Below, one piece after another: positions 8,881-55,306 of a stretch of 64,000 nucleotides of DNA. Source of the stretch: a bacterium (lineage in GTDB: Bacteria; Hinthialibacterota; Hinthialibacteria; Hinthialibacterales; Hinthialibacteraceae). The notes under the pieces are model-generated. The model was not told the origin of the DNA, did not search any database, and saw only the letters and a program-made list of their open reading frames with translations. Location of the stretch: the NCBI GenBank assembly GCA_963662285.2, contig CAXXMV010000002.1, positions 1,600,001-1,664,000 of the forward strand, read 5' to 3'. The position numbers and the translations under genes are program-made. Each line of letters opens with the position of its first letter. Position 1 is the stretch's first letter.

Positions 8881-9807
8881 TTAATGAATCTCCCAATTCA
8901 TGACGTCAGTCGGGATGGCGAAAGTGGCTGTGGTCCATCTGGCATCGGTGTCGCCGTCGCCTACCCACATCATTTGAGAGTCATAACCTCCCGCTGCTAG
9001 ATCTGTATCGATGCACAAATGGGTAAAACTCATTGAACTTCCTGCAAGAGGCGTGGGAAGCATGGGATTCCAGCCTAATTGATCCATAAGGTCATAATCA
9101 ATTTCAGCCGGCAGAGGATCTGGATCGCTGTAATACTTGCTTCTTTCAATCGAATCCCAGCTGATTTTGGCTTCGATGGTGTATTTACCTTCTTCTACTA
9201 TTACTACGACTTCCCATGCTTCGTTTACTTCTCCACGAACTACGGTTCCATCTTCGAGAGTTTTATCGGCTACATCAGAACGATTGCCCAGCCGGGTTCC
9301 GACGCACCATCTTCTGGTTGTTTCAACGGTTTGGTCTTCCGTTGCGCCAATGGCGATGATCATTTCGCCGGGCAGCCACTGGTTGTCGGCTTCATAATCC
9401 TGGAAAAAGTCGGGGTATAGTAAAATTTCCTGCTCAGGATTATTGGTGAAATCGATGAACCACTGCACTCCATCTCGTTCCCACCATTGGGCTGGTATTG
9501 TACTATCGACGTGGGAGATCACGTCATCTTCCACTACGGCGGCGCAGTACAGGGCTTCATCGTTGTACATCATGGCGAATGTGCAGACCGTGTCGGGATC
9601 ATTCCAGTTTGTACCGAAGGTATCCACAACGCTGTCTTTATCATAGGTTACCCATTCGGCATTGTTCCAGTCGCCGACATCGCCGTCAATGGCGGGGCCG
9701 CCGGTGAATTGAATGGTGTATTGGGGAGCGTCAGGATTTTGCGCCCAAACTGACATTCCACAGATAACCGCTAAAAACAATACTGACAACTGCAAAAATT
9801 TTTTCAC
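8881..9807 (-). CDS. Secreted CBM9/DOMON-like sugar-binding protein with C-terminal motif TDVMNWEIH
   Basis: GTG start at 9807 behind AGGAG; signal peptide; PAIDGDVGDW, MYNDEALYCAAVVEDD, WERDGVQWFID, YTIEAKISW. Confidence 0.75.
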   Translation of the reverse strand: MKKFLQLSVLFLAVICGMSVWAQNPDAPQYTIQFTGGPAIDGDVGDWNNAEWVTYDKDSVVDTFGTNWNDPDTVCTFAMMYNDEALYCAAVVEDDVISHVDSTIPAQWWERDGVQWFIDFTNNPEQEILLYPDFFQDYEADNQWLPGEMIIAIGATEDQTVETTRRWCVGTRLGNRSDVADKTLEDGTVVRGEVNEAWEVVVIVEEGKYTIEAKISWDSIERSKYYSDPDPLPAEIDYDLMDQLGWNPMLPTPLAGSSMSFTHLCIDTDLAAGGYDSQMMWVGDGDTDARWTTATFAIPTDVMNWEIH

Positions 9808-9951
9808 ATTTAATCTCCTTGTTTTTTCTTTAATAAATGATTGTATTACCAGAATTAGACGGATGATTCGCTTAATCCATAAATACAAATATATCGTAAA
9901 CTAGGATTTATACAATGATTATTTTTTCAAGTTCAGATATGTTTCAATAGA

Positions 9952-11187
9952 TTATTTCTTCCATTGGTCTGCGCCGATGTCAATCTGCTGATCACGCGCC
10001 TGTTGGTCGATATCGTTTTTTATGGAGGGCAGAGACATCCCCTGATCGATGATTTTGGCGGATGGTTTTGTAAGATGAAGATCGCCTTTTTGAACGTCCA
10101 CGAACAACTGGCTGAAATCTCCGATCAAATTATGTTCTAAACGAATGGCCTGGTCTGTTTCAATCGACATGCCTGGTCCGCTGAGAAGATTGTTGGCGAC
10201 CAGCAAGCCCTGGTTATCGTGAATGATACGCAACAAGCGGTTCATGCGGTTATCAGGATCGAAAATGGTGTTATTGATAATCTGGCAATCCTTGGTGTGA
10301 TCGGCCAGGATGCCAGATTCCGGGGTGCGGGTTACAAAGTTATTGCGTACAATCATGTTGGTTCCATGAATGGAACTTTGGTTGGGGCCGATGCCGCTGG
10401 AGTTGCCCAGGGCGATGCCGACGTCGCAGTCGATGATGGTGTTGCGTTCGATGATGCAGTCTTCGGCGTGATGCCACATGAAGACGCAGCCGCGTCCTTC
10501 ACGGGTCCGGCCTTGGATGTTCATGAAAACATTGTCGCTGATAAGCCAGTTTTTGGCGTACATGGCGTCAATTCCGCCGATGTAGTTGCCATTGAAGGTC
10601 TTGGGCGTATCGGTTTCGTCGTTGCTGAACTGTTTGGGGTGATCGTTATAAAAGAGGCAGTGTTGTATGCGGATGTTTTTAGGCCGTATTTCTTCACGGT
10701 TCTCTTTTGGGATGCGGACTGATTTAACGCCGCGCTGCCAGATATTATGGATTACGCAATTATAGATAGTGAGGTTCTGGACGTTGTGATCCGAGTTGAT
10801 TTTGAATCCATTCCATTTGATGTTTTGAATGGTTATATCCGCCACGGTAACGCCTGAGCATGATCGGAAGCCTACTAATTCGCCATGAATGCTTTTTGAT
10901 CCATCGAGAATTACTGCTTTGCGGTCGCCGGATGCGCTGCGCAGGCTGACGTTATCGGCGCCAATCTCCAGATAGCGCGGCATGTAGTAGGTTCCATCTT
11001 CTAGCAGAATAGTCTGGTTTGGTTTAACTTTTTCAACTGCTGAGAACAATTGCTCTACGTTTGAGGCGTGGATGATGTTGGTTGTTGGAAGGGGTAGAGG
11101 AGGCGCTGAGGGCGGCCAGGGCTGGGCGACCGCCTCTAAAGATGCGAGTGAAAATATTAGAGTAATAATGTAGAGATTGGTTTTCAT
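9952..11187 (-). CDS. Secreted right-handed parallel beta-helix (pectin lyase-like) protein
   Basis: Signal peptide; TILLEDGTY; repeated I.NN.I rungs; C-terminal GDLHL...IDQG...DID...R....DIGADQ. Confidence 0.8.
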   Translation of the reverse strand: MKTNLYIITLIFSLASLEAVAQPWPPSAPPLPLPTTNIIHASNVEQLFSAVEKVKPNQTILLEDGTYYMPRYLEIGADNVSLRSASGDRKAVILDGSKSIHGELVGFRSCSGVTVADITIQNIKWNGFKINSDHNVQNLTIYNCVIHNIWQRGVKSVRIPKENREEIRPKNIRIQHCLFYNDHPKQFSNDETDTPKTFNGNYIGGIDAMYAKNWLISDNVFMNIQGRTREGRGCVFMWHHAEDCIIERNTIIDCDVGIALGNSSGIGPNQSSIHGTNMIVRNNFVTRTPESGILADHTKDCQIINNTIFDPDNRMNRLLRIIHDNQGLLVANNLLSGPGMSIETDQAIRLEHNLIGDFSQLFVDVQKGDLHLTKPSAKIIDQGMSLPSIKNDIDQQARDQQIDIGADQWKK

Positions 11188-11237
11188 TATTTTTGATCCT
11201 TACATTGTTATGATTGAATATGATTATAGCATAAACT

Positions 11238-11270
11238 GATGGGACACGCTTTCGCTTTGTCCCATCCTAC
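11238..11270 (-). repeat. GTAG-type REP
   Basis: Minus strand GTAGGATGGGACAAAGCGAAAGCGTGTCCCATC. Confidence 0.75.
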
Positions 11271-11391
11271 GCGCTGTAACTGTAACAAAATACCTTATGG
11301 GGTGACTTGATATCAAGTGATTGGAAATATATGAAGTGAACTCAATCAAGGGCAATGTCATTAACTTAAGTTATTGAAATGACCCCAAAAA

Positions 11392-11730
11392 GGGGAGCAT
11401 CGGCTTCTAGCCGGTACGCCAATACCTTCGGTTCTCTTCATACAAACATGAATTCATGACAACAGCCAACATTTCGTTTGGCATAATAATATCATGGCTT
11501 CTGAATGTAATGAAAAAGGTTTGGCCAGTATCATGTATGTGAGGAAGGATTCTACGAGACATTTTGAATGGGTTGACAGGTTTATAGGTTTCTTTGACAC
11601 ACCGGCTAGAAGCCGATGCTCCCCTGGATCGGTTATTCATTTTTCATCCCCCTCTCTGCATGAAAATTTTTATGCGCGATGGGGTTCATTCTATCTTATT
11701 TGACACACCGGCTAGAAGCCGGTGCTCCCC
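11392..11730. repeat. REP family C: three 24-bp copies flanking a RAYT remnant
   Basis: GGGGAGCATCGGCTTCTAGCCGGT at 11392-11415; exact reverse complement at 11601-11624; 1-mismatch reverse copy at 11707-11730. Confidence 0.9.
11407..11592 (-). pseudogene. N-terminal remnant of a REP-associated tyrosine transposase (Y1/HUH)
   Basis: SRRILPHIHDTGQTFFITFR...NRRY matches the RAYT N-terminus; frame ends inside the REP before the HUH motif. Confidence 0.75.
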
Positions 11731-11940
11731 GTTTCATTCTCCTCTCCTGATTTGTGTACGGAGAGTAGCCCGGCGGGCGAGGGGACAGCTGGTTAACTTA
11801 ATGACATTGTTTTATGACTCCCCCCCCAGGATGGGGGGGAGAATTTGATTATCGTGATTTTGATGATCGCTATAGCAATTGATTGCGCTGATATAACTGG
11901 TATGTTAAAGGACGCGAATATCTTAGGGAGAACAATCATC

Positions 11941-14900
11941 ATGGGTAGATTATTGTTGGCTTTCTTGTGTCTGTTTTGTGCTTTTTCGGGAACTGCTTCG
12001 GGGGTAGTGTTTGAGGATCGATGTCAGTCTGTTGATAATTGGACATTTATCGATTATTCGGGGCAACTGCAAGTTGATATTGTCGATGATTTAAGTTGTC
12101 CGCCGGGCTATGGTCCGCAGGTTATGAATATTCATGGCGATGTGGCTATGGGCTTGGCTGAGGCGCCGCCTTTGCGGGAAGGTACTTTTATCGTTTTGTA
12201 TAAAGAGAATGCTCCCGCTGTGGAAGACGCTGATGGCGTGGTCATGGTATGGGCGCAATATGATAAGGATACCTCGGCGGAGCATAACACCAAAATCAAG
12301 CGGCCCCATGTATGGCTGGAACAGGATAATGACCTGGGTTTCCAATTCCGGGTAATAGACGCTGAGGGCAAGGAATATCCCGCTGAAGAACGGGTCGGCG
12401 TCGGGCTGGTTACTGATTCGTGGAATCAGACCAATTGGATCTGGCAAAAGGTGCAGATCAAAGGCAACCGGTTAAAAGCCAAATTCTGGCCTGCGGAAAA
12501 AGATGAACCCGATTCGTGGGCTATTGAGACTAACTATGATGCTAAGGGCGACCGCTTTGGCTTGCGGATTAACTCTGGATCGATCCGTGTGGCTTATTTT
12601 GCAGCGGACGTGAAGGATATCCATCCCCAGACGCCGCCCGCCTATCTTTTTTCTGAACGGGAACGCCTTGTTGATCCAGATTACTTAAGATTGAAATTAT
12701 TTACTAATGCTCAAAAACAGAGCCGGGAAAAATTTGATCTAGTATTTTCTTGTGATAACAAGGTAATTAGTAAAGCGGATATCACTTTGGATATTCTCAA
12801 GGGACATAATGAAACTTCCATTAACTTGGAGACCGATGCTCCTATATCTAATATATTAAAAGCGGATGAAAACGTATATATTTCAGAAATACCATCCAGC
12901 GGATTATGCAAAGTATCGTTAACGAATCCTACCGGCAATTATTTCTCGCAATGCTCATTTGAAATCGTTTCTCAATCAAAATTGATGGATCAATTCGGCG
13001 GCGCATGGAAATTTCTGAATCGGCTTGATGGCGCCATCCATGACTTGGATAAAGACACTGAGTGCTATAAATCCCTGCGGGTTATCAAAGACGCCGCCGC
13101 CGCGCATCTTGAACAGACCCGTACATTGTTGAGAGAGGGGAAGACCTCTGAGTCAGAAACCTCTTTCCGCTTCGTTATCGAAGCCTTGGCTGAATTGCGC
13201 GGATACAAGAGCGCCTGGCTTAAGGAACTGGGATTGACTTTGGATTTGGATTTTGTTCCAGAGGTTTTTGAGGATAAGCAGGGAATCGTCGAACCCAAGC
13301 ATGGCGTGGTTGATTTCTATTCGCCCAATTACCAAATCTCGTTTGATAATCCAACATCACAAGCCAAAAGTTTGGTGATGGGGCGCTCCTATGAGATTGA
13401 GATTCCCTGGAGCGTGACGGGCGGCGCTATCGACCGCGATTTTAGTTTCGATGTACGCCTGGTCAGCCCATTGGGAAACCGGGTTGTAGCGCAATCGAAG
13501 GCCGCCCCGAAGGTTCCCACCAGTCGATGGAAGCCGGGCGAGGTTTATAAACAGCGCATTACCTTGAATGTATTGGCGGAAGACGCGGTTAAACGGCCTG
13601 CGGAACCAGTAGTGCTTGATGAACTACATAACTTGTTGGTGACGGTGACTGATCCCAAAACGGGAGCGCGGGTTTTATTGGGCAACCAACCCGGCGATCA
13701 AATTGACCGGGTGGGAACCAGTTTTCTGGTTGATAGGTTTTATGTATCCAGCAGTCTATTGGAAATCGGCGCTTTTGAACCGGATGCCGCCGATATTGAG
13801 GTGAATAAGGAGCGGCGCGTTATTGCGACTTTACGTAATTTTGGAGATGAAACCGCTTTGGTTGATGCGGTCTTAACCGTTGCAACCGAGTCTGGCCGGG
13901 TGGTATTCCAAAAAGCGCAGTCGGTTAGCATTGCCGCCAATGCGAAGCACAAGGTTAAATACTATTGGTCAAGCAAGACGGCGGGCAACCTTACCATTAC
14001 TCTTCGGCTGATGCGTGATGGTATCACCCTGACTGAAGCCTCGCGGGAATTGATGGTCAGTCCACCATCAGGTCAGGATGTTGAGGTTATAAAACAGAAC
14101 CATGTGGAACAACGCTTGGGGCGGTTTGTTACTTCTATCATGGTTAACATGCAGAATGGTAAGAATCCAGTTACGGTTCGGGTGTATGCCGATAATCGGT
14201 TGGTGGGAGAGAAGACCGGATCGACCGATGAAATTGTGGTTGATGCCGAACCGTGGTTTGGTTATTACGATATTGTGGTTGATTGCGGCGCCTATTGTTT
14301 CGAGAAGCGCGTGGTGGCCACCGTGGTTGAGACCAAGGGTAAGTATCTGCTGGTCAATGGAGAACCGTTTATAGTAAAGGGCGTCAATGTGCATGGCCTG
14401 GATTCAGGCAGCCCGGAACGCACCGCCAGCATGATGAGGGTCATGCGCGAGTTGGGCTTCAACGCCTGGCGGGGCGATTATCCCGCACGCTGGCAGATGG
14501 AGTTGGCCTATGAACTTGGCAGCGTCTATACCGTGCTGGCGCCATTCAGCTGCGCCCGGACTCCAGAAATTTTTGGAGCTCAGATTGGACCGCCCTTAGG
14601 GACGGCGCGGGAACTGACCCGCTTGTTTATTGAGCGCTACAAGGATTCTGCTGGAGTATTGTTGTGGAATTCATGCAACGAAATCCAGGGCGAGAATATT
14701 GATTTTCTATTGTCGCTCTATCCGCTCTATAAAGCCTATGATCCGTATCAGCGCCCGGTGCATTACGCCAATCTTTACGGCCAGGATTTGTGGCAGGGTC
14801 AGGATGCAATGGGAGTCAATTACTATTTCGGCGAGGGACAAACAGCTGTGGATCGTCAGATATTGATTCAGCGCAGCCTTGATCTGGCGGTGTCTCATGA

Positions 14901-15408
14901 TATTCCTGCCATCTTCTGTGAATATAACAGTTACCAGGGCGCCATTCATTCAACCGGAGTGGAAGCCATGGAAGGCCTCTTCTCATGGGGAGTGGAGCAG
15001 GCTGGCATGTCGGGCGGCTTCTTATACATGCGCCCCAATAGCACCTCCCACCCCGGAGTTATGGATGGTTCATTCAATACCCATAAGATTTTTGATGAAG
15101 CCATAATTAAAGCTTTCGCTGATGCCGAGATTGCCCTCTTATCTACATCTGGCAGCGGTTATCAGGCACGGATTAAGAATAAACGCGATTGCACCCTGCG
15201 TCAGCTAACGATTAACTACTCTGTTAATAATGTCGCGTGTGATCAGGTTGTTCTGGATGATCTGGCGGCTAAGGGATCGGTGGATTTAACCTTGCCGATG
15301 CCATCCGATGTTGGCAGGCCGGATTTCATTATCACCGGGACTTTGGAATTTGTTACGCATTATGGGTTTAGGAATAAGGTTCCATTTAAGATGGTGGCAT
15401 CTGACTAG
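11941..15408 (+). CDS. Secreted multidomain glycoside hydrolase with C-terminal GH2-like TIM barrel
   Basis: ATG 11941 behind AGGGAG; signal peptide; LLVNGEPFIVKGVNVH, LLWNSCNE (acid/base) and AIFCEY (nucleophile-like). Confidence 0.7.
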   Translation: MGRLLLAFLCLFCAFSGTASGVVFEDRCQSVDNWTFIDYSGQLQVDIVDDLSCPPGYGPQVMNIHGDVAMGLAEAPPLREGTFIVLYKENAPAVEDADGVVMVWAQYDKDTSAEHNTKIKRPHVWLEQDNDLGFQFRVIDAEGKEYPAEERVGVGLVTDSWNQTNWIWQKVQIKGNRLKAKFWPAEKDEPDSWAIETNYDAKGDRFGLRINSGSIRVAYFAADVKDIHPQTPPAYLFSERERLVDPDYLRLKLFTNAQKQSREKFDLVFSCDNKVISKADITLDILKGHNETSINLETDAPISNILKADENVYISEIPSSGLCKVSLTNPTGNYFSQCSFEIVSQSKLMDQFGGAWKFLNRLDGAIHDLDKDTECYKSLRVIKDAAAAHLEQTRTLLREGKTSESETSFRFVIEALAELRGYKSAWLKELGLTLDLDFVPEVFEDKQGIVEPKHGVVDFYSPNYQISFDNPTSQAKSLVMGRSYEIEIPWSVTGGAIDRDFSFDVRLVSPLGNRVVAQSKAAPKVPTSRWKPGEVYKQRITLNVLAEDAVKRPAEPVVLDELHNLLVTVTDPKTGARVLLGNQPGDQIDRVGTSFLVDRFYVSSSLLEIGAFEPDAADIEVNKERRVIATLRNFGDETALVDAVLTVATESGRVVFQKAQSVSIAANAKHKVKYYWSSKTAGNLTITLRLMRDGITLTEASRELMVSPPSGQDVEVIKQNHVEQRLGRFVTSIMVNMQNGKNPVTVRVYADNRLVGEKTGSTDEIVVDAEPWFGYYDIVVDCGAYCFEKRVVATVVETKGKYLLVNGEPFIVKGVNVHGLDSGSPERTASMMRVMRELGFNAWRGDYPARWQMELAYELGSVYTVLAPFSCARTPEIFGAQIGPPLGTARELTRLFIERYKDSAGVLLWNSCNEIQGENIDFLLSLYPLYKAYDPYQRPVHYANLYGQDLWQGQDAMGVNYYFGEGQTAVDRQILIQRSLDLAVSHDIPAIFCEYNSYQGAIHSTGVEAMEGLFSWGVEQAGMSGGFLYMRPNSTSHPGVMDGSFNTHKIFDEAIIKAFADAEIALLSTSGSGYQARIKNKRDCTLRQLTINYSVNNVACDQVVLDDLAAKGSVDLTLPMPSDVGRPDFIITGTLEFVTHYGFRNKVPFKMVASD

Positions 15409-15471
15409 GGTGGTTGTTATCAACCCTCACCCGCTGTTTTTCGGATTATGGAAATAAAGAAGTGAAATCAA

Positions 15472-15504: not shown

Positions 15505-15544
15505 GCTATCCATTTTACGTGATGGGATTCAAAATATTTAAACG

Positions 15545-15627: not shown

Positions 15628-17088
15628 TTATTTGCTTAATTCCCAGTTAGTTACGTCGGAACTGGCTCTTGTTTCGGCGTTGAATTGGGCGGCTACTTCT
15701 TCGGCGGTTAGAGCGCCGTTATAGATGCGGGCATTATCTATGTATCCTGCCCAATTTTCACCGGCTGCGGCTTGGTTATCGCCGCCAAAGAAGAGAGGTT
15801 GAGGATCATATAATGCCTGAGCAATGGTTCGCATTCCGGCTTCTTCGCCATTGCGGTAATAGGTAAGCAAATTCCCGCTTTTGACTACTACGTGATGCAG
15901 CCATACGTTATTAGGAATGTCTTCATAATCCAGGTTGTCGTCGCCGTTGCCTTCGGTGTGCCATTCAAATTTGGTCGGGGTGAACTTAATGAATTGGCGT
16001 GGAACGAAATCAACCTTTTCGATGCTTACGCGGTTTCCAAAGATAATCTGATTTTCGGTGTTGCCTTCGGCTTGTTTCGCCCAGAATGACCATGTGAAAT
16101 CATTTTCTAATGTCATAACTGGAATAATGGCATCACCAGCTAATACATAAGAGCTTTCAGCTGTGCCATCGGAACTAATGACTGAGTCACGCTCGGAGTC
16201 GTTAACCCATGCTGAGCCGCCTTCACCTAGACCATTACCTACGTTATTGACGGTTCCATCGTTGCCATTTCCGCTGGAGTCGGCAGCCACTTCGCCATTG
16301 CCTTCTTCAAATTCCCAAAATCCGATCAATTCGGCTGGAGCGCCAGCTGATTCATAATTAAATAGAGCAGCGACGTCATCAGCGGATACAGCGTAGTCAT
16401 AGATGCGGACGTTATCAATATATCCAGCCCAGTTTTCACCAGCTGCGGCTTGGTTGTCGCCGCCGATGAATAGAGGTTGTGGATCATATAAAGCCTGGGT
16501 GATTACTTGAGATCCGGCTTCTACGCCATCGCGGTAATAGGTAAGCAAATCAGCTGCTTTGACAACTACATGATGAATCCATACATCGTTGGGAATATCT
16601 TCGTAATCCAGGTTGTCGTCGCCATTGCCTTCAGTGTGCCATTCAAATTTGGTTGGAGTAAATTTGATGAATTGGCGAGGGACGAAGTCAACCTTTTCGA
16701 TGCTCATACGGTTTCCAAGGATAATATCATTGTCACCATTACCTTCGGCCTGTTTAGCCCAAAATGACCACGTAAAATCATTTTCTAAGGTCATAACTGG
16801 AATAATCGCATCGCCAGCCAGTGCATATGCTCCTACGTCTAAGCCATTGAAACTGATGACGGATCCCCGTTCAGGATCAACTACCCATGCTGCGCCGCCA
16901 TCACCTAAACCCTGATCCAGGTTAAAGATGGTTCCATTGTTATCATTGGTGCTGGAGTCAGTAACCGAATTGCCTGACCCTTCATTAAATCCCCAAAAAC
17001 CAAGCAAATCGGCATTAGCGCCAATTGGCAATAAGAAAAGAGCTGCGAGTAAACCGAGTACTAAAGTTGAATGTTGTTTCTTGTTCAT
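15628..17088 (-). CDS. Secreted tandem LamG/concanavalin A-like protein with C-terminal motif SDVTNWELSK
   Basis: Signal peptide; two similar domains (W.F.EG.G...DSS...N.G, FTWSFW, W.HHVVV, G.IDN.RIY). Confidence 0.88.
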   Translation of the reverse strand: MNKKQHSTLVLGLLAALFLLPIGANADLLGFWGFNEGSGNSVTDSSTNDNNGTIFNLDQGLGDGGAAWVVDPERGSVISFNGLDVGAYALAGDAIIPVMTLENDFTWSFWAKQAEGNGDNDIILGNRMSIEKVDFVPRQFIKFTPTKFEWHTEGNGDDNLDYEDIPNDVWIHHVVVKAADLLTYYRDGVEAGSQVITQALYDPQPLFIGGDNQAAAGENWAGYIDNVRIYDYAVSADDVAALFNYESAGAPAELIGFWEFEEGNGEVAADSSGNGNDGTVNNVGNGLGEGGSAWVNDSERDSVISSDGTAESSYVLAGDAIIPVMTLENDFTWSFWAKQAEGNTENQIIFGNRVSIEKVDFVPRQFIKFTPTKFEWHTEGNGDDNLDYEDIPNNVWLHHVVVKSGNLLTYYRNGEEAGMRTIAQALYDPQPLFFGGDNQAAAGENWAGYIDNARIYNGALTAEEVAAQFNAETRASSDVTNWELSK

Positions 17089-17255: not shown

Positions 17256-19577
17256 TTACCATTGCGCAGGCAGGTATTGATCCACGTTATCAGAGGTAAT
17301 GATGGCGATTGGCAGATAGCGAATGGGATCAATCGGTTTTCCATAGAACCAATCGGCGGCTAATTTCATGGGGATGGCGCCATCGGCTTCGGGCGACTGG
17401 TAGGTAATGGCGTGGAGGCGGCCTTCTTTGATGAAGTCCATGCCGACTTTGCTGTTGCCTGCGGCGACCCGGATGATATCCTCGCGGCCTGCGTTTTTTA
17501 TGGCTTCGTTGATGCCGACCTGGGCGCCGGAATCATCGGCGCTGCTGATGCCTTTCAATTCATCGCCGAAGCGGGTAATCCATCCACTGACGACATCCTT
17601 GGTTTTTTCTGATTCGAGGTCGGTGGTCTGCATGGCCAGCAGTTTCATTTTGGGAGCAATTTTCTTTAACTCTGATACAACCGACCAGGTGCGTGAAAAG
17701 AAAGGCGAACAGCCGGGGAAATGCTGAATTATGCAATAGCCGCCTTCATAATTCATCCGTTTGGCGAACTCATGAGTTAGAAGACGGAACTGGCGCCAGT
17801 CATCGGGACCGGTCCAGGCCAATATATACTTGTGCGCTTCCGGGTCGGGCAGCAGGTTAATGGCGATGACCGGGATTCCCGCTTGATTGAGTTTTCTGAA
17901 GAGTGGAACGCAGGCTTTGGCGTCAACCGGACTGACAATGACCATGTCAGGCCGTTCGTTAATGACCTGATCGACCTGTTGGTTTTGGATATTGATATCG
18001 TTGTTGGCCGTCTTGTATTTAACATTGATGCCATAGACCTGGGCGATCTTATTCATACCCTTCATCATGCCTGTATGATATGGGTGGTCGACCGCTCTCA
18101 GGTAGATCACATTCTTGCCGGATGGGCCATCTGCTGGCGAGACGGGTTGGTTGATTTTCGTGACGCCCCAGCCGGAATATTCCATATCATACCAATGCAA
18201 TGCATCATCTTCAGGTAATGCCGCCGGATCGTCGGGGCGCTGAGGTATGGCCTTGGTGGATGGCGGCAGAATAAGCGGCTGACCGTCTTTGGGTTTTAAT
18301 TGGGCGATCTGCTCATCCTGTTGTTGGGCTAATGATAATAAATCAACGGGATTTAACGCCGGGGTGGATGCTTGCGCTTTTTGAATTGCATCACTGGAAA
18401 CCAGCGCCATTTGGGATTTTGATTGCATGCTCATAAAAAACATAGCGAAAATGGCGACTATAGAGACGCAGCCTACTACGGCGATGGCGGTTAAAGCAAT
18501 GTTTGTTTCCTTGTTAGTCATGTCGGTTTCCCTGCCTGTTTGATTTATGTGATCCATGTCAATTTCTTCAATTAATTCGTGGCGGCGCCCGCGCACTTTC
18601 TTTTGTTGGGCGGATGAGAAGGCGTCATATAATACCACGCAGGCCAGGACGAAACCGCTGGCCATTTTGCGGGTTTCCCAGCCTGATCCTATACATTCCA
18701 GCCCGTTGTAGAGTATGGTCAGGGTAAGCAGTGCGATCATGCTTTTGAGTACGCCGCCTTGGCCTCCGGTCATGGCTGTTCCGCCGATAATCACCGCCGC
18801 TACCACTTCCATTAAACTGTTGTTGCCCATAGTGGGCATGGCGGAATTGAGGCCGATGGAGAACAATGCGCCTCCCAGGCTGGCCAGGGCGCCTGATAAG
18901 GTGAAAGCGCTGATGATGTATTGATCTACTGGCAATCCGGCGTTCCAGGCGGTATGGCGGTTGCCGCCTATCAGGTAGAAGCCGCGTCCTATCCGGGTAT
19001 ATATAAGCAAGAATTCAAAGCAGATGACCAAGCCGATGGTGATTAATACGCGGGGAGGGAAGACCGACAACAGAGGCGTCTCCATCCAGGTTCCCAAAGT
19101 GAAACTTTCGACGGATAAAGTGCCTCCATGACTGTAGGTGTAGATTAAGCCCTGGGTTATTATCATCATGCCCAAGGTGGCGATGAAGGAATCCACTTTA
19201 ATCTTGGCTACCAGGAAACCGTTGATCAGGCCGATCAAAGAGCCGCACAGGATGGCGATAGAGATGCTGGCGGGCCAGCCTAGAATGGGTTGCAAGCCGA
19301 TGGTCAACATGCCGCCGAGGGTTAGGTTGGTTCCGATGGAGAGGTCTAGCTGGCCGCAGATCATCACTAAGGTGAATCCGATAGCGGCAGGCATACTGAG
19401 GCTCATGCCCTTAAGGATGGTGGTCTGGTTGTGCAGGGAAAGAAAGTGAGGCGCCGCCATTGCCATGATGGAGAAGACCACCAGCAACAGAAAATAGATA
19501 CGGTTTTCACTTAAAAAGTGATGAATCCCTTTTGATGACAGGTTGCTAAACATCGATCCTCCCGGATTTTCTGGCAA
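17256..19577 (-). CDS. Sugar ABC permease fused to a periplasmic sugar-binding domain
   Basis: N-half RbsC-like (GQLDLSIG, FIATLG, AAVIIGGT.MTGG.G); C-half Peripla_BP_4-like (SPVDAKA, AGIPVI); single open frame. Start may be 19553. Confidence 0.85.
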   Translation of the reverse strand: MPENPGGSMFSNLSSKGIHHFLSENRIYFLLLVVFSIMAMAAPHFLSLHNQTTILKGMSLSMPAAIGFTLVMICGQLDLSIGTNLTLGGMLTIGLQPILGWPASISIAILCGSLIGLINGFLVAKIKVDSFIATLGMMIITQGLIYTYSHGGTLSVESFTLGTWMETPLLSVFPPRVLITIGLVICFEFLLIYTRIGRGFYLIGGNRHTAWNAGLPVDQYIISAFTLSGALASLGGALFSIGLNSAMPTMGNNSLMEVVAAVIIGGTAMTGGQGGVLKSMIALLTLTILYNGLECIGSGWETRKMASGFVLACVVLYDAFSSAQQKKVRGRRHELIEEIDMDHINQTGRETDMTNKETNIALTAIAVVGCVSIVAIFAMFFMSMQSKSQMALVSSDAIQKAQASTPALNPVDLLSLAQQQDEQIAQLKPKDGQPLILPPSTKAIPQRPDDPAALPEDDALHWYDMEYSGWGVTKINQPVSPADGPSGKNVIYLRAVDHPYHTGMMKGMNKIAQVYGINVKYKTANNDINIQNQQVDQVINERPDMVIVSPVDAKACVPLFRKLNQAGIPVIAINLLPDPEAHKYILAWTGPDDWRQFRLLTHEFAKRMNYEGGYCIIQHFPGCSPFFSRTWSVVSELKKIAPKMKLLAMQTTDLESEKTKDVVSGWITRFGDELKGISSADDSGAQVGINEAIKNAGREDIIRVAAGNSKVGMDFIKEGRLHAITYQSPEADGAIPMKLAADWFYGKPIDPIRYLPIAIITSDNVDQYLPAQW

Positions 19578-22650: not shown

Positions 22651-23808
22651 TTATGGTTGAAAAGACTCTAGTTGCAGCGGATAATCTCCATACTCTCTGA
22701 CCAGTTTTACGATTGAATCATAGGTTTGGCCGGAGACGCTGGATGATACTGAATGATCGGAGGCGAAGATGTATCCTCCGCCTTTGGCGGCGTTAAGTTT
22801 ACTCAGCACTTCATGTCGTACGGCTGCTTCGTCGCCGCTTTCCCACACTTGGATATTGCTGTTGCCGCAGAAGCCGATGCGGTGGCCGTATTGTTGGCGC
22901 AGTTTATTGACGTCCATATCCGCTTTGGCTTCGAGAGGATTGTAGGCGTCGACTCCTATGTCGATGAAGTCTTCGAATATTTTATTCACATTGCCGCAGC
23001 CGTGATAAATCACCGGCAAGCCGTTGGCGTGGCATTCATCTATTATGGCTTTGACCCAGGGTTTGAAATACTCACGCCAATAGACTGGTGAAAACATCAG
23101 ACTTTTCTTATAGGCCACGTCTCCCCAAATGACCATGCCGTCTAATAATCCTCCCGAACAGCGGATCTCTTCTTTGGCGCAATCCAGATAGAACTGGCCG
23201 ATGCGGTTGATGACCTTGCCCATGCGGTCAGGATGCATCCCCATCCACAGCAGGGTGTTTTGTTGACCGATGAGCCGGGTGAGGCACTCGGAACATTCAA
23301 TGATGCTGCCGAAGACGGCGAAGTCAGGCCGGATTTTTTTGACATTGTCGAACCATGCGATGGAGTTGCGCTCGAAGCCGTCGCCCACTCCTGCGAGGTG
23401 ATTATCGCCTGATTCAAAGAAGCGCCGCCGGTCTCTGGGGTCGTCAAATTCCAGCGCTTCCAGTTTTTCTATACTGTCGGTATCCCAGGAGAGCATTTCG
23501 GGCATGGGGAAAGCATATTTTTTGCGCACTGTCGTACCAAAGCCCGTCTTGATGGTGATCTCGTCAGCGCTATCTTTTATCACCTCAAATGATTTGATGT
23601 GGGGGTCGTTATTGGGAAGGGTGACAATCCAGTCTAAATTGTAATAATCATAAGGGTTTGCGTCGTCGGGAAGGTTTAATTCGCTACGCCAGCGTTTGAT
23701 GAATCCCCCCCAGAAAAAATCGCTTATGGGAACGCGGTCCGGCTCTTCATGGCGCAGCGCTTTTTTTATCCGGTCAACTTTTTGTAAGCAGTTATCGGTT
23801 CGATTCAT
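22651..23808 (-). CDS. Uroporphyrinogen decarboxylase (URO-D/CIMS-like) family protein
   Basis: ALRHEEPDRVP, WGDVAY, YHGCGN, NPLE, GGGYIFASDHSV. Confidence 0.85.
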   Translation of the reverse strand: MNRTDNCLQKVDRIKKALRHEEPDRVPISDFFWGGFIKRWRSELNLPDDANPYDYYNLDWIVTLPNNDPHIKSFEVIKDSADEITIKTGFGTTVRKKYAFPMPEMLSWDTDSIEKLEALEFDDPRDRRRFFESGDNHLAGVGDGFERNSIAWFDNVKKIRPDFAVFGSIIECSECLTRLIGQQNTLLWMGMHPDRMGKVINRIGQFYLDCAKEEIRCSGGLLDGMVIWGDVAYKKSLMFSPVYWREYFKPWVKAIIDECHANGLPVIYHGCGNVNKIFEDFIDIGVDAYNPLEAKADMDVNKLRQQYGHRIGFCGNSNIQVWESGDEAAVRHEVLSKLNAAKGGGYIFASDHSVSSSVSGQTYDSIVKLVREYGDYPLQLESFQP

Positions 23809-26672: not shown

Positions 26673-26782
26673 TTTTAATGATAGATCGGTAAAGCATAGC
26701 CTATCCACGATATGGGCATTAAGTTTCATGCTGAATTCATCTATCTTGGAGGATAGGATTGCTAAAATGGAGAGAACGCCTT

Positions 26783-39434: not shown

Positions 39435-40334
39435 TTATTGGGCATTGCGTAATCCACGGCCATGATCTTTGCGTGCTTGCAGTTCTTGGACCTGTTCATC
39501 GGTGAGTACTTTTTTGATTGCTTCGCGCATTTCGTTGGATATGTCCTGGCGAATATCTTTGATCTTTTCAATCTGCTCAGCGGTTAGATCTAGTCCGCGC
39601 AAAGCCATTCCTGGATATCCACCTTGAGCTGCATCGCCGCGACCGTGACCCTGGCCTCTGGCTTCACTCTGGGCGAAGTTGCCGCCTCGCGCCCTGCGTC
39701 CCTGTCCTTTACCTTGAACTGCGCAATCGCGACCGTGACCCTGACCTCTGGTTTCACTCAGGGCGAAGTTGCCGCCTCGCGCCCTGCGTCCCTGTCCTTT
39801 ACCTTGAACTGCGCAATCGCGACCGGGACCCTGACCTCTGGTTTCACTCTGGGCGAAGTTGCCGCCTCGCGCCCTGCGTCCCTGTCCTTTACCTTGAACT
39901 GCGCAATCGCGACCGTGACCCTGGCCTCTGGTTTCACTCAGGGCGAAGTTGCCGCCTCGCGCCCTGCGGCCTTGACCTCTAAATTCTTTCATTTTTTCAA
40001 TTTGTTCGTCGGTTAGGTTGAGTCCACGCATTCCCATTCCACGATGTTGTCCTTGTGCTGAATCTTCGTTGTCGAATCCAGGTCCTTTAGGGCCTCGTGG
40101 AGCAAAGTTGCCGCCGCGTCCCATGCGTCCCTGGCCTCTAAGTTCCTGCAATTTTTCAATCTGTTCGTCGGTCAGGTCGAGCGCTTTAATCATGTGTTCG
40201 AATTGTGTATCGGTTCTGTTGTCGATTGATTGAGACGGTTTCGCATTTACATCCTGCGCATAAGTTGCTGGTCCTGCAGCCATGATTCCAATGATGCTGG
40301 CGGTGATAATAGTAAAGAATTGATGAAGTTTCAT
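39435..40334 (-). CDS. Spy/CpxP-like (LTxxQ) exported protein with Gly/Arg-rich repeat insert
   Basis: Signal peptide; LDLTDEQ, LNLTDEQ, LDLTAEQ, VLTDEQ. Confidence 0.75.
   Translation of the reverse strand: MKLHQFFTIITASIIGIMAAGPATYAQDVNAKPSQSIDNRTDTQFEHMIKALDLTDEQIEKLQELRGQGRMGRGGNFAPRGPKGPGFDNEDSAQGQHRGMGMRGLNLTDEQIEKMKEFRGQGRRARGGNFALSETRGQGHGRDCAVQGKGQGRRARGGNFAQSETRGQGPGRDCAVQGKGQGRRARGGNFALSETRGQGHGRDCAVQGKGQGRRARGGNFAQSEARGQGHGRGDAAQGGYPGMALRGLDLTAEQIEKIKDIRQDISNEMREAIKKVLTDEQVQELQARKDHGRGLRNAQ
39638..39977 (-). repeat. In-frame 90-bp tandem repeat (nearly four units)
   Basis: GTTGCCGCCTCGCGCCCTGCG recurs at 39678, 39768, 39858 and 39948. Confidence 0.92.
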
Positions 40335-47114: not shown

Positions 47115-47122
47115 TTAGATTA

Positions 47123-47367: not shown

Positions 47368-49908
47368 CTAATACAGACTCCAATTAGATACAGGAGTGGG
47401 TAGAAGAGTGCTCAGAAATTCACGCCTCAATTGAACGAATGTTCTAAGAATATCATACGAGTCTGTAATCTGTTCCCGCCGGGTGTTGCGCATTGCGCCG
47501 GTATGTTCTTCAAGAAGTTGTAAATCATCCAAGAGGAACTTCTCGACTTCTGCGAATTTGCCAAACATGCGTTCTTCTGTGAAAGCATGATTAAATTCGT
47601 AACCCATCCGGTCAATGTATTGCTGATAGAATACTTCATCCTTGCATAGCGGTCCGGTAATTGGTCCGGTATCACGACCCGCGTGTGCTGCTCTGCCGTT
47701 TAAGGGGAATTCAAGCGGCATTTCGGTAAACATGGGATTGGAGTCAGTGTATCCCCAGGCTTTATCCAGGTCCCAGGGAATCATTTCCCACTTCTGCGTA
47801 TCGGGATCAAGAGTCATCCAATGATTGTTATGGAAACCATCCCAATTGCTCAATAACACGCAGGCGGTGATGTACTGAATAAATTCATCCACATCCAGGT
47901 TGGTTTCAAGCAATTCATGCAATTTTGTTTTATCACGCTCTTTCAGTAGTGTTTCGAGGTTGTCGATACTGGCCGTGCCGTTTTCCAGATTGTTGTGGGG
48001 TTCCCAGTTGGGGCTTACATAATTTCGTTTAAACAAATCGGCGTCTGGATTGCGGTCGTTGATTTCTAAAAACCTTTCGTTGACTTGCTGAATCATTATC
48101 CGTTGAGTGTGGCTGCCATCCACAATTACGCGGAACCAATCGGTCAGGGGAGCAGGGATGCCCATTTCACGGAAAAACCAGAATCCAAGGTCTTCACGGT
48201 GGGGAGTACTAGGGCCGGAGGTATTGCCAGTTTGATTGTATTCTGGAAGCATATTTAATGTCCGGTCACCCCGGTATTCTTCGCCTTTGAGGAACTTCAT
48301 TTTCTGCCCATTACGGGATGTGTGGATCATGGCGCCATCGAAAACCAGAGGATGCGTTTCACCAGCTGGCAAGATAACCGCCCCGCTCATAATCCGTTCC
48401 ATTTCTATCAACGAGACTGGGCTTTCATAATAAGGCCATAATATGGTTAATAGAGATTCAACTTCTCCATCGTAGACGAAATAAGATTCAAAAGGACGCA
48501 GATTCATTACATGAGGTAAAACCAGGGTTGAATCATCATTTAGAATAAGTTTGGCATTAAACCGTATGAGCGACTGGGACGGCATGGCTGGAATTTTCGC
48601 TTCATAGGTTACCGAATCAACGCTCTCTGCGATGCGAGTCATTAAGATTTGGTGGATATCTGATTCAACCTCCGTAACGATATGTTCTCCTTCAACGAGA
48701 CTGACTCCTAGTGAGAATGATGATGCAGTTAAACTGGAATTAAGCCCCACCATAGCGAGAGTGTTGTTTTCGTTTTGCAATAATCCATTGTCATTCGGGA
48801 TGGTGAAAATTTCCCAGTTGTTTGAACTGTGTGTATCGGTTGCAAGCGATTCGTGGTTAACTGATTGAGGGATGTTGTCGCTGGCGACTTCGATGCCATT
48901 GAGGTAACAAACAAAACCTCCAGTGTAACGAACCATGATGTTAACGTTTGCCAAAGTATCGGCATCAGGAATGGAAAATTTACGGCGTAGGTATACGGTA
49001 GAATAATTCCTCCGCATATCGTTTAGTTCAGTGCGATTGCGGTTCCATCCACTTCCGCCATAGCCGAATGTACCCTGTCCCCGTCTCCAGGAAGAATCAT
49101 CAAAGTCTGGAGCAGCCCAAAGGTCTGATTCAGAAGGCGCTTTGTTTCCTTTCCAATACTGAAAATTATCTCTGGATGAAACATAAGTTTCCGGTCCTTG
49201 GTTGCTTCCGCCTTCGACGCCTTGTTCGGCTTTTTCCCATTGCAAGGTTACCGATTTGATAATATTTGCGGCATCGAAACCCATGCGGATTGCGACCTCA
49301 TCACTAGAGGTTGGGTGTTCGGGTAGAACTTCATGCGCAAGAATAACCGGGCGCGGCTTTGTTCCGCTGATGGAATTAGCCAGACCGGGCGTCCCTTCAT
49401 CTAATAAAGAAGCCCGCCAACTGTGGAAATCATCCGCTGGTAAATCCCAGGCGATCCGCTCCAATGTTGACCCATATCCGTCTGCGCTACGGCTCCAGGG
49501 AGGTGAATCGTTATATTTGAGTTCTTCAACTACCGTTCCATCGGGACGAACCAGCGACAACCGTTCGCCGCTATTGGATAATTTGCCCTCTAAAGGGCCT
49601 ATGACAGGAGATGGAGCGTTGTTCCAGATACGATTATCTGGATCACGCGCCAGCACCAGATAAGTATACGGCGCCATCAAAGAGCCTTCTGGAAGAACAA
49701 AAGTTGTCCCTTTATCAAAGTAATAACCGGATACATCAACAGAATCTGGTCCTGGATTGTACAACTCGATAAACTCTCGGATCGATCCCGTCGTATACTG
49801 TTCGTCGGGGGGATTGTAACTAATCTCATTAATAACTACATCCGCTCCTGCTATGGAACATATTATCAGTAATCCCAATAATCCCAAATAAAATATAATT
49901 TTTCTCAC
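47368..49908 (-). CDS. Secreted lamin-tail-domain / CotH kinase family protein with C-terminal motif TPVSNWSLY
   Basis: VVINEISYNP, EFIELYN, LSNSGE; NWDGFHNNH...WEMIPWDLDKAWG. Confidence 0.88.
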   Translation of the reverse strand: MRKIIFYLGLLGLLIICSIAGADVVINEISYNPPDEQYTTGSIREFIELYNPGPDSVDVSGYYFDKGTTFVLPEGSLMAPYTYLVLARDPDNRIWNNAPSPVIGPLEGKLSNSGERLSLVRPDGTVVEELKYNDSPPWSRSADGYGSTLERIAWDLPADDFHSWRASLLDEGTPGLANSISGTKPRPVILAHEVLPEHPTSSDEVAIRMGFDAANIIKSVTLQWEKAEQGVEGGSNQGPETYVSSRDNFQYWKGNKAPSESDLWAAPDFDDSSWRRGQGTFGYGGSGWNRNRTELNDMRRNYSTVYLRRKFSIPDADTLANVNIMVRYTGGFVCYLNGIEVASDNIPQSVNHESLATDTHSSNNWEIFTIPNDNGLLQNENNTLAMVGLNSSLTASSFSLGVSLVEGEHIVTEVESDIHQILMTRIAESVDSVTYEAKIPAMPSQSLIRFNAKLILNDDSTLVLPHVMNLRPFESYFVYDGEVESLLTILWPYYESPVSLIEMERIMSGAVILPAGETHPLVFDGAMIHTSRNGQKMKFLKGEEYRGDRTLNMLPEYNQTGNTSGPSTPHREDLGFWFFREMGIPAPLTDWFRVIVDGSHTQRIMIQQVNERFLEINDRNPDADLFKRNYVSPNWEPHNNLENGTASIDNLETLLKERDKTKLHELLETNLDVDEFIQYITACVLLSNWDGFHNNHWMTLDPDTQKWEMIPWDLDKAWGYTDSNPMFTEMPLEFPLNGRAAHAGRDTGPITGPLCKDEVFYQQYIDRMGYEFNHAFTEERMFGKFAEVEKFLLDDLQLLEEHTGAMRNTRREQITDSYDILRTFVQLRREFLSTLLPTPVSNWSLY

Positions 49909-51875: not shown

Positions 51876-51953
51876 GCGAAGCGGTTTTGCTTTGCTAAGA
51901 TGTAGATTGGCGCAATGGGGAAATCATACAAAGACATAATATAGGAGGCGACG

Positions 51954-53348
<1,395 letters not shown>

Positions 53349-53381
53349 ATACGGTGGGCTTGGCGCCAAGAATAAGCCCAA

Positions 53382-53473
53382 GTAGGGTGGGCTAAAAGCG
53401 ATAGCGTAGCCCACCATGATGCATCAGTGGTTTTGGTGGGCTACGCCGCTTCGCGGCTTTTAGCCCACCCTAC
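53382..53473. repeat. Inverted pair of GTAG REPs (family A; REPIN/BIME-like)
   Basis: GTAGGGTGGGCTAAAAGCGATAGCGTAGCCCACC (53382-53415) and reverse copy ending GCCCACCCTAC (53435-53473). Confidence 0.9.
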
Positions 53474-53514
53474 GCGAAGCCCATAATATGCACAGCGCGA
53501 CGGAGGTTAATTCC

Positions 53515-53715
53515 ATGCCGGAATATCGTAGATTGTATACGCCCGGATCATGGTATTTTTTCACGGTTGTAACGTATAAACGTCAAGTGATATTTGATTG
53601 TGATGAAGTTTGGCATCTGTTACGAGAATCAATCCAAATCGTGAAGCGTAGCCTAAAAGCAAAGCGTAGCTCTCCATGCTACTGTGCGAAAAACAAAAGA
53701 ATAATTTTCGCTTGA
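53515..53715 (+). pseudogene. N-terminal remnant of a REP-associated tyrosine transposase (RayT/YafM-like)
   Basis: GGAGG RBS; MPEYRRLYTPGSWYFFTVVTYKRQ; similarity stops near 53646, where a degenerate REP begins; no HUH motif. Confidence 0.85.
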
Positions 53716-54031
53716 AAAAACACTTAACATAATATATGCTGAGTAATTACGGGTAGGTTAAAGTAAAAACTGGACGAAGCGCGCTCCATATATTCTATCT
53801 AATGTTATGTTATATCTAATGTTCTTTCTATAATTTAAATATCGTCGATATATTGTGGTTTAATTTGCAGTTTTCGACTTTTTTTCCGTTTCGTCTTTCA
53901 TGATAAAATTGAATAAAAATCATGAGAGGGGGTATGATTTTCTTGTTTAATGGGAAATCCAAGGTTAAAAGAGTATCTAGTAAATACGGGTTAAGATTTA
54001 TGTATTCCAATTTTGAAAGGAGTTGTATGAA

Positions 54032-55306
54032 ATGAACAAGCGAATTGTTTGTATGGTTGCAGCGTATCTCATTATTATTTCCATTCCAGTTGCCCAAGCT
54101 CAGAAATACGATTCTACTCCAGTTGATCTGGAGAGTATTTGGAATGCGGTAATCTGGTATAATGATGGACAAGCAGTTGATTCAAGCCTTGGTTTGCCTA
54201 CCAACGATGCTGGAATTAAAATCTCCACACTCCCCAGCAATGTCATTCCAGGACAGGTAAACATTACAGAAGATGGCGTGGTTGCATTTCTCTTGCCGGA
54301 TATGACTGCGGGAAATCTCAATGCTTATTATGTAGCGGGGGATAACATTCAGGTTCCTCCGGGAGAATACCAGTATGTATTTCTTGCAGTCACTTCCGAT
54401 AGTGGTAATTGGCCGGGTAGTGTGAGCGACTGGGCTGCCGATGTTGATCCTGATACGGGAGAAATCTATGACCCCCGTTCTGAGGGAAACAGTTTCAAAC
54501 CCATTTATGTTGATGGTGAAGGCGATTGGATTCCCATAGGAATCGTACCCGATTGGTTCTGGAAACCGCCGGAGTGGGTAGCCCCGGCCAGTGGAGATTC
54601 CAGTGAAGTTATTCAGGAATACCTTTCCTATGCGGCTGATCCCAATGGCCCTCTCTACTTCTGGGATGGGGTGAACTATGGCGATCACGATTTCGGTCAA
54701 TATACCTATTGTAATGGAGAAGATTCATACTTTATGTATATAATGGATATCCCTGATGGATTGACTTCCGCAACTTTATGGACCGAAATGTGGGGCAACG
54801 TCAAATTCTCTATTTCCACAGATGATGAGACGTTTACCGAGCTTTATAACTCCGCCACCATGGATCAGGTATACACCGCCCGTTCAGGAAATCTCGATGG
54901 TTACCAACCAAACCGCGAACTGCGCGATTTTGACCTGACGCCGTTTATTTCTTCCGGGGATGTAAATACCATTTACTTAATGTTTGAAGATGCCGCTCCT
55001 TTGAATGCCGTGGGCCAGGAGAACAATCCTTGGGGCGCACGTTGCCATCGGCTAGGCATCTATACCGGACCAACCGTGAAAACCAGTGGTGGATCGCGTT
55101 TATGGCAGGGAATGGAAACAACCAGCTGGGGCTCTCCAGAAGGTGGAATATATCTAATCTGGAAACAGTACCGCGTGGATGCGACGCGAACCCTTCAGTC
55201 TATTTTATTACCCAATAATAGACCTGCAAACTCTCCCTTTCTGATCCTTTTTGCTATCACTCTGGCAAATGATCGTACTGCAATCGAAGATTTTATGTTG
55301 TATTAA
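54032..55306 (+). CDS. Secreted acidic hypothetical protein with C-terminal motif TAIEDFMLY
   Basis: AAGGAG upstream; signal peptide ending AQA; D/W/G-rich. Confidence 0.75.
   Translation: MNKRIVCMVAAYLIIISIPVAQAQKYDSTPVDLESIWNAVIWYNDGQAVDSSLGLPTNDAGIKISTLPSNVIPGQVNITEDGVVAFLLPDMTAGNLNAYYVAGDNIQVPPGEYQYVFLAVTSDSGNWPGSVSDWAADVDPDTGEIYDPRSEGNSFKPIYVDGEGDWIPIGIVPDWFWKPPEWVAPASGDSSEVIQEYLSYAADPNGPLYFWDGVNYGDHDFGQYTYCNGEDSYFMYIMDIPDGLTSATLWTEMWGNVKFSISTDDETFTELYNSATMDQVYTARSGNLDGYQPNRELRDFDLTPFISSGDVNTIYLMFEDAAPLNAVGQENNPWGARCHRLGIYTGPTVKTSGGSRLWQGMETTSWGSPEGGIYLIWKQYRVDATRTLQSILLPNNRPANSPFLILFAITLANDRTAIEDFMLY

Follow-up and report, generated by a model that had tools for sequence, protein, structure and literature searches.

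Bacterial C-terminal sorting signals have repeatedly led to the machines that read them, as with sortase, exosortase, rhombosortase, myxosortase and the system of type IX secretion (T9SS). To our knowledge, all such signals described on substrates of the Sec pathway consist either of a motif followed by a membrane helix and a basic tail, or of a whole folded domain. Here we analyze a 64,000-nucleotide stretch of DNA (hereafter, the window) from a bacterium of the phylum Hinthialibacterota (GenBank assembly GCA_963662285.2, contig CAXXMV010000002.1, positions 1,600,001 to 1,664,000 of the forward strand), in which six genes for exported proteins spanning five families end in one shared nine-residue pattern, referred to below as the tail, a candidate sorting or docking tag.

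The described systems closest to the tail each share some of its features. LPXTG/sortase, GlyGly-CTERM/rhombosortase and MYXO-CTERM/myxosortase rely on short, lineage-specific C-terminal signatures borne by dozens of surface proteins per genome, a description that the tail resembles; however, a hydrophobic helix and a basic cluster follow the motif in those signals, and the tail has neither. Like the PEP-CTERM signal of the exosortase system, the tail occupies the extreme C-terminus of Sec-exported proteins, is found on many unrelated families per genome and is restricted in lineage, but it lacks the PEP motif, the transmembrane (TM) helix and the Arg-rich end, and it comprises 9 residues rather than the 24 positions of the PEP-CTERM model TIGR02595. 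The T9SS C-terminal domain (CTD) is, like the tail, a TM-less C-terminal signal, and it serves Sec-dependent cargo bound for the surface or the medium; it is nonetheless far larger (a 72-position model, ~75 residues in the homologs P0131 and P0132) than the nine disordered residues considered here. The abstract of PMC11285876 describes the T9SS CTD as a folded beta-sandwich.

Six exported proteins with a common C-terminus

A first-pass annotation, made from the sequence of the window, had singled out six open reading frames (ORFs), and all of them are present at the coordinates it gave, with C-termini exactly as it quoted. Gene A (8881-9807, minus strand) encodes a 308-residue exported CBM9-like protein (Pfam CBM9_1) whose tail, TDVMNWEIH, is encoded at 8884-8910, with the stop codon at 8881-8883. 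Gene B (15628-17088, minus strand) encodes a 486-residue exported LamG protein (Laminin_G_3) with the variant tail SDVTNWELSK (15631-15660), and gene C (27460-28950, minus strand) a 496-residue exported protein that matches CBM9_1 twice and ends in TSVSEWSLH (27463-27489). The product of gene D (33386-35152, plus strand) is a 588-residue exported protein of a poorly defined family, with only a weak PrcB_C match in Pfam and the tail TPVLNWTIY (35123-35149); that of gene E (47368-49908, minus strand) is an 846-residue exported protein with a lamin-tail domain (LTD) and a CotH domain, ending in TPVSNWSLY (47371-47397); and that of gene F (54032-55306, plus strand) is a 424-residue exported protein without a Pfam family, ending in the Phe variant TAIEDFMLY (55277-55303). 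The annotation had listed the body types as CBM9-like (twice), LamG, CotH kinase, a putative repeat protein (D) and an unknown.

Other properties ascribed to these proteins were likewise borne out. The N-termini of all six are hydrophobic and signal-peptide-like and are followed by AxA-type sites, consistent with the cleavable Sec-type signal peptides predicted for them. All six are acidic, with 13-18% Asp plus Glu against 4-8% Lys plus Arg, and they lack a terminal TM anchor, stopping 0-2 residues past the motif with no hydrophobic stretch and no run of Arg or Lys. Four exported proteins named as non-carriers indeed lack the tail: a GH2-like protein (11845-15408), a heparinase-like protein (60746-63097), a beta-helix protein (9952-11187) and a Spy/CpxP-like protein (39435-40334). 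Using our own greedy ORF calls and a crude signal-peptide heuristic, and counting B by eye because the tail expression misses its ...LSK ending, we found the tail on 6 of the 12 soluble signal-peptide proteins of the window and on none of the 30 other ORFs, cytoplasmic and membrane proteins included (Fisher p=1.8e-4).

A pattern this short and degenerate might carry no function at all, being a chance match, a repeated or terminator-like stretch of DNA at the gene ends, or simply the strand that completes the domain structure, and B and F, the weakest matches among the six, fit it loosely. Both variants recur in other proteins, however: P0271, which is 90% identical to B, ends in NWELMK, and the F-type ending [DQH]-F-M-[LI]-Y is seen in two F paralogs at one related locus (L005; ..SQFMIY and ..GQFMLY), in L018:18135-19610 and in the CotH relative P0139. 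Translation of the whole window in six frames (~128,000 codons) contains 16 instances of the core [VI]x[NDE][WF]x[LI], 6 of which are the C-termini described above. Across A to F, the Val/Ile position is encoded by GTC, GTA, GTT, GTT, GTA and ATC and the Asn/Glu/Asp position by AAT, AAC, GAA, AAC, AAT and GAT, while the DNA downstream of the six stop codons is unrelated. Because synonymous codons differ and the downstream DNA is not shared, the tail is selected at the protein level, and a repeat or terminator element at the gene ends is ruled out.

We then surveyed the tail beyond the window. A contig scan with the C-family alignment yielded 71 loci, comprising 23 related loci (400 kb), which have a tail-type central gene and are labelled 'Ca. 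Omnitrophota bacterium', 'bacterium' or 'uncultured bacterium', and 48 control loci (797 kb) from Verrucomicrobiota or, in one case, from Pirellulaceae. With a loose expression placed at the C-terminus ([VIL]..[WF].[LIVM][YFHQ] plus 0-2 residues), 34 of 104 soluble signal-peptide genes in the related loci were tail-ended, as opposed to 3 of 144 genes without a signal peptide or TM helix, 1 of 45 membrane-type genes and none of 19 genes open at the 5' end. No tail-ended gene was found among the 644 genes of the control loci, 181 of which encode signal peptides, and matches at the ends of shadow ORFs were practically absent (0/722 in related and 1/1830 in control loci), arguing strongly against a chance pattern. 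Internal matches occurred at ~3-4e-4 per residue in every class of protein, corresponding to ~0.001 C-terminal matches expected by chance per protein.

The association with export persisted after removal of the query family (27 ORFs), when 13 of 286 flank genes were tail-ended: 10 of 79 signal-peptide genes compared with 3 of 207 others (Fisher p=2e-4) and with 0 of 181 signal-peptide genes of the control lineage (p=4e-6). Of those 3 others, one is a tyrosine-phosphatase-family protein whose N-terminus is hydrophobic but was overlooked by the heuristic; another is an F-family paralog with a clear signal peptide once its mis-called start is corrected; and the last is a 178-residue fragment of a CXXCH c-type cytochrome (L017:11722-12255, plus strand) that ends in ...DVTHWSMYE, has no signal peptide in the ORF and may be broken. 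The survey thereby upholds what the annotation had anticipated, that the tail would be enriched on signal-peptide proteins, confined to the extreme C-terminus, present on further proteins outside the window and specific to one lineage. It also extends the range of unrelated families that bear the tail, which by Pfam includes CBM9, CBM96, LamG and LTD/CotH proteins, a lyase, a phosphatase, a cytochrome and a giant protein.

Anatomy, exposure and exchange of the tail

The tail follows the consensus [TS]-x-[VI]-x-[DEN]-[WF]-x-[LIM]-[YFHQ], with 0-2 extra residues. We aligned 37 tails of families outside C and numbered the positions backwards, so that the final motif residue is -1. Position -1 is occupied by Tyr in 23 cases, Phe in 6, Gln in 4 and His in 3, position -2 by Leu (25), Ile (6) or Met (4), and position -3 by Ser (9), Met (9), Ala (5), Glu (4) or Thr (3). 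The aromatic position -4 has 31 Trp and 6 Phe, and it is preceded by Asp (17), Asn (6), Gln (4) or Glu (4) at -5, a variable residue at -6 and Val (24) or Ile (10) at -7. Position -8 is mostly Ser (11), Pro (9) or Asp (6) and position -9 Thr (19), Ser (6), Val (5) or Ala (4), with Pro, Gly or Ser frequent just ahead of the motif.

To place the tail relative to the protein body, we used AlphaFold2 models of C and A built with family alignments (numbering shifted by one, as the first residue is absent). The model of C is a soluble two-domain beta-sandwich protein (mean predicted local distance difference test score, pLDDT, 87.0; predicted template modelling score 0.89) whose last strand covers residues 478-483, while residues 487-495 have pLDDT below 50 and no secondary structure. 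For A (mean pLDDT 75.8), the final strand of the model covers residues 291-295 and the last six residues, 302-307, likewise fall below 50. The disordered tail in both models rules out that it forms the last structural strand of the domains. Nor is there a folded C-terminal beta-sandwich of ~70-100 residues of the T9SS kind, since only 6-9 residues follow the last body strand, with pLDDT below 50. As modelled, the tail is a short, exposed linear motif and not part of the body fold.

Relatives of E indicate that the tail is a movable element. The CotH relatives P0124, P0128, P0129 and P0164 run 305-320 residues past the point where E ends, and they have no tail-like sequence at the old junction; instead, the loose motif matches each of them just once over its full length, at the new C-terminus. 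Absence of the motif at the old junction and its presence at the new end mark the tail as modular and position-dependent. Relocation of this sort, together with the differing codons and downstream DNA, the disorder in both models and the near-absence of matches in shadow ORFs and control genes, leaves the view that the tail is no functional signal hardly credible.

In other relatives, the same junction leads into an established sorting signal. P0131 and P0132, two further relatives of E, continue into a sorting domain of the type A class of T9SS (TIGR04183; 37-38 bits against a cut-off of 23), and both the C relative P0064 and the B relative P0277 end in a PEP-CTERM domain whose score exceeds the TIGR02595 cut-off. 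In other phyla, three cargo families out of the six (B, C and E) thus carry established sorting signals exactly where this lineage has the tail, and this shared slot provides an argument for a sorting role beyond those of the first-pass annotation. The six window proteins themselves matched neither kind of model: TIGR02595 gave no hit to the whole proteins at E<=0.1 or to their last 45 residues at E<=10, with P0064 and P0277 as positive controls, and neither TIGR04183 nor another T9SS sorting model matched, with P0131 and P0132 as controls at the scores above. More generally, no Pfam or NCBIfam model covered the tail when the whole proteins or the 45-residue ends of the six were searched, so that the database search that the annotation had called for turned up no existing model.

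Examined family by family, the type of C-terminus follows descent. Among the best 120 of 274 homologs of C, with endings typed by our own expressions, 52 have the tail, 57 a longer extension, 6 a PEP-CTERM-like end and 5 other endings, and the tail is present in 38 of the 40 closest homologs. On a body-only tree of the family (121 rows, 447 columns, FastTree), the tail state requires 1-2 changes, compared with a mean of 39.6 after shuffling, and the PEP-CTERM state requires one; the few changes imply that C-terminus type follows lineage. In Verrucomicrobiota, the orthologs of C bear a ~50-60-residue C-terminal extension ending F-[YF]-R-[VA]-x-x-x (the 57 extension-type proteins of the best 120, including P0055 and P0080, and loci such as L023-L047). 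P0055 and P0080 gave no NCBIfam match, and the extension may be another unnamed C-terminal module in the sorting-signal slot. At L011:9998-11462 (plus strand), a C-family gene falls into two ORFs that overlap (9998-11080 and 11043-11462), of which the second retains the tail, probably a frameshift or an assembly error.

The remaining families show the tail at differing frequencies. All 30 homologs found for A end in it, with the Trp as an invariant alignment column. For E, 18 of the best 150 cluster representatives (of 23,574 matches) are tail-ended, including proteins of other architectures of 1150-1750 residues, and other representatives end in T9SS-type, dockerin-like or other modules. B has few close relatives: P0279 ends in TANWPVY, P0272 (62% identical) has only a degenerate ending, and 21 of 120 listed homologs end PEP-CTERM-like. 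Signal-peptide-like N-termini are found in 51 of 53 C-family carriers; among 17 E-family carriers, 10 pass the heuristic, and the other seven are four N-terminal fragments and three proteins with visibly hydrophobic N-termini. Read from database labels, the phyletic range of the carriers comprises 'Candidatus Omnitrophica/Omnitrophota bacterium', 'bacterium', 'Candidatus Hinthialibacter antarcticus' (P0049) and 'Candidatus Hinthialibacter sp.' (P0415). NCBI places the genus Ca. Hinthialibacter in the phylum Ca. Hinthialibacterota, and the lineage of the tail is probably this phylum, Hinthialibacterota (OLB16).

Signals without a membrane helix offer further points of comparison. The beta-signal of outer-membrane proteins (OMPs), substrates of the beta-barrel assembly machinery, is similarly short, occupies the extreme C-terminus with an aromatic final residue and, as is probable for the tail, forms a strand. 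In its consensus the last and the third-last residue are hydrophobic or aromatic, whereas the hydrophobic register of the tail falls on the last, second-last and fourth-last, and the carriers of the tail are soluble CBM9, LamG and LTD/CotH folds rather than barrels. Two barrel proteins of the lineage end otherwise, a DUF481 protein in ...MYKF (L013:8120-9235, minus strand) and a YaiO barrel with TPR repeats in ...MFRW (L017:1883-3154, plus strand), which we take to be the usual beta-signal form. Type I secretion substrates have no N-terminal Sec signal peptide, unlike the tail carriers with their signal-peptide-like N-termini.

The tail also invites comparison with ligands of periplasmic PDZ domains and chaperones, such as the YxF peptides that activate DegS and the pilin C-termini bound by PapD, where by analogy a free hydrophobic or aromatic C-terminal peptide would be read as an added strand; those ligands, however, each come from one class of protein (OMPs or pilins), in contrast to the many unrelated soluble families that bear the tail. 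Periplasmic PDZ domains bind free, flexible C-termini with hydrophobic or aromatic ends, and W-x-L-Y is similar in character. The tail might therefore be a recognition site for a periplasmic PDZ-type protease of the Prc/CtpA or HtrA class, serving maturation, activation or turnover instead of sorting, and 30 of the 37 tails from families other than C do stop exactly at the Y/F/H/Q position. The other 7, though, continue for one or two residues (K, E, Q or EW), so that a strictly carboxylate-anchored reading, as for a classical PDZ ligand, does not fit all carriers. A degradation tag would moreover not be expected to be conserved throughout families, as the tail is in those of A and C, nor would orthologs be expected to have PEP-CTERM or T9SS domains in its place, and no PDZ protein was found near carriers, among the window proteins or the 53 tail-less exported proteins of the related loci. 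We consider such a protease site quite improbable.

The tail appears to be undescribed as a sorting signal. No description of it was found in the literature searched, which omits most subscription journals and supplements; searches on the motif itself, on sorting signals in the lineage and on TM-less signals in general gave nothing relevant among the papers listed. Passage searches of the description of Hinthialibacterota (PMC9324843) gave no mention of C-terminal signals, sorting, secretion systems, S-layer or exosortase. A search of the ESM Atlas with protein A gave only generic CBM9-like clusters, with scores up to 0.90.

A candidate tag for the cell surface

The proteins that carry the tail in the flanks of related loci include, by Pfam, a Y_phosphatase3 protein, a heparinase II/III-like lyase, a CBM96 protein and a CBM9-like protein, in addition to the multihaem cytochrome fragment and several proteins without a Pfam family. 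The largest, L070:1746-9650 (minus strand), has 2635 residues, a signal peptide and beta-helix, NosD, TIG, PD40 and cohesin domains, and ends in ...TDIESWMVY. Among the 53 tail-less signal-peptide proteins of the related loci scanned with Pfam are TolC-like proteins, TamB, DUF481 and YaiO barrels, cytochromes c, BamB-like propellers, a DsbH-like thioredoxin and a GFO/IDH/MocA oxidoreductase, and most glycoside hydrolases seen were also tail-less (rhamnosidase-type, GH106, BNR). The TolC-like, TamB, barrel, cytochrome c and BamB-like proteins of this set are typical of the periplasm or the outer membrane. By its domains, the tail-bearing cargo (binding modules, CotH, MtrC-like cytochromes and the adhesin-like giant) resembles cell-surface or extracellular proteins. 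An MtrC/MtrF-like multihaem cytochrome at L017:7034-9028 (minus strand) ends in a weak variant, ...RVPFWQQY, that falls outside our expression. In Shewanella, MtrC and OmcA reach the surface via type II secretion, and the endings of the cytochromes at L017 are hints that extracellular electron-transfer proteins may use the tag.

In our proposal, the tail acts as a C-terminal tag for sorting or docking that is specific to this lineage and TM-less, a free linear peptide whose receptor would route or tether its cargo to the cell surface, and we put the probability of this reading at roughly 50%. The proposal rests on the combination of features described above: the tail lies on exported proteins, depends on position and not on fold, is frequent, lineage-specific and exposed, and is interchangeable with PEP-CTERM and T9SS signals in orthologs. 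In the mechanism that we envisage, an N-terminal Sec signal peptide would first carry the protein to the periplasm, where the body would fold and leave a flexible C-terminal peptide of 7-9 residues exposed after a short Gly/Pro/Ser/Thr linker, as the AlphaFold models and conservation suggest. A putative receptor would then read the linear motif, most likely through beta-strand addition or in a peptide groove, and the cargo would leave the periplasmic pool to be delivered to, or held at, the cell surface. From the motif, its distribution, exposure, modularity and shared position we infer the recognition, the direction of transport and a possible cleavage of the tail. For the same protein families, such a tag would replace PEP-CTERM/exosortase or the T9SS CTD without a TM helix or a folded domain. 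More tentatively, and with somewhat less confidence than an even chance, we suggest that these steps make up a new Hinthialibacterota-type pathway that takes folded Sec-exported proteins to the surface by means of a 7-9-residue TM-less peptide with the core V-x-[DEN]-W-x-L-Y.

Non-catalytic proteins that consist of CBMs make most sense if held on the cell, in line with this proposal. An alternative is a pure, non-covalent docking or assembly tag. Here secreted binding modules would attach through the tail to a scaffold at the surface or to one another, in a cellulosome-like manner or by strand complementation, and the tail would keep enzyme-free CBM and LamG proteins on the cell while being dispensable for crossing the outer membrane. 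Many carriers are indeed non-catalytic and would be useful mainly if tethered (A and C with CBM9 only, B with LamG only, and the CBM96 protein), the giant carrier contains a cohesin domain, and the tail is predicted to be exposed and flexible. Yet we saw no scaffold with repeated peptide-binding modules, enzymes such as the heparinase-like lyase and the phosphatase are carriers too, as are cytochromes, and crossing of the outer membrane is left unexplained. Docking alone seems to us rather unlikely.

Several observations weigh against the sorting or docking tag proposed above. No receptor, peptidase or transporter specifically linked to the carriers was found in the window or in the loci, in keeping with the first-pass annotation, which had found the machinery not identifiable in the window. 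A GspG-like prepilin-type protein (pseudopilin) is encoded at 26759-27364 (plus strand), convergent with gene C and 96 bp from it, and its family is present in 7 of 24 loci; as linked machinery it was rejected, being equally common in controls (5/312 versus 12/644 genes). Pfam searches of the 53 tail-less signal-peptide proteins gave no PDZ, secretin or sortase-like candidate, nor did NCBIfam reveal anything pertinent in another 12 window proteins, of which 7 lack a Pfam family. The motif itself is loose, as the residue before the Trp varies in the A family and the 7 tails noted above run past the motif. The signal-peptide heuristic returns false positives, having scored a glycosyltransferase, IspD and CinA as exported, and the density of carriers is lower in the relatives' flanks (13/286) than in the window (6/42 ORFs), which makes genome-wide numbers uncertain. 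Carriers are more acidic than tail-less signal-peptide proteins (Asp plus Glu 16.8% and Lys plus Arg 5.2%, n=44, versus 12.5% and 9.7%, n=66), with a Mann-Whitney p of 4e-15 that is inflated because 27 of the 44 carriers come from one family; the bias is also present in the six window proteins, which span five families. Finally, a purely periplasmic role of the tail carriers is possible.

Neighbouring genes and implications

The window contains other genes of note. In a single ORF at 17256-19577 (minus strand), an ABC permease domain (BPD_transp_2) is joined to a periplasmic binding domain (Peripla_BP_4). This ORF is located upstream of genes for a second permease and an ABC ATPase, and a rhamnose mutarotase is encoded in the vicinity. 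Two URO-D-family proteins are encoded at 37068-39370 (plus strand) and 22651-23808 (minus strand), one of them followed by a CobW-type GTPase, a pairing that presumably resembles those of corrinoid-dependent methyltransferase systems. No Pfam or NCBIfam family was found for the ORFs at 7220-8179, 58742-59980 and 60123-60575 (plus strand) or at 2537-3277, 3374-4102 and 36021-36824 (minus strand). The first of these overlaps the end of a VWA/BatA-like gene (4465-7371), and because of this overlap its true start is probably later.

Were the suggested Hinthialibacterota-type pathway real, the tail would define a novel class among bacterial sorting signals, read by a receptor or translocon that is likewise new. 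Extrapolated to a genome, the frequencies in the flanks (13 of 286 genes) and in the window (6 of 42 ORFs) suggest that the pathway could serve on the order of a hundred or more cargo proteins. In practical terms, the tail offers an annotation rule that marks likely surface or extracellular proteins in these genomes, and its presence or absence across genomes provides a handle on the machinery through phylogenetic profiling. The host belongs to an uncultured phylum specialized in polysaccharide degradation, and a helix-free tag of nine residues, borne by roughly half of the window's soluble exported proteins, would point to a new system of recognition and of export or anchoring in these bacteria.

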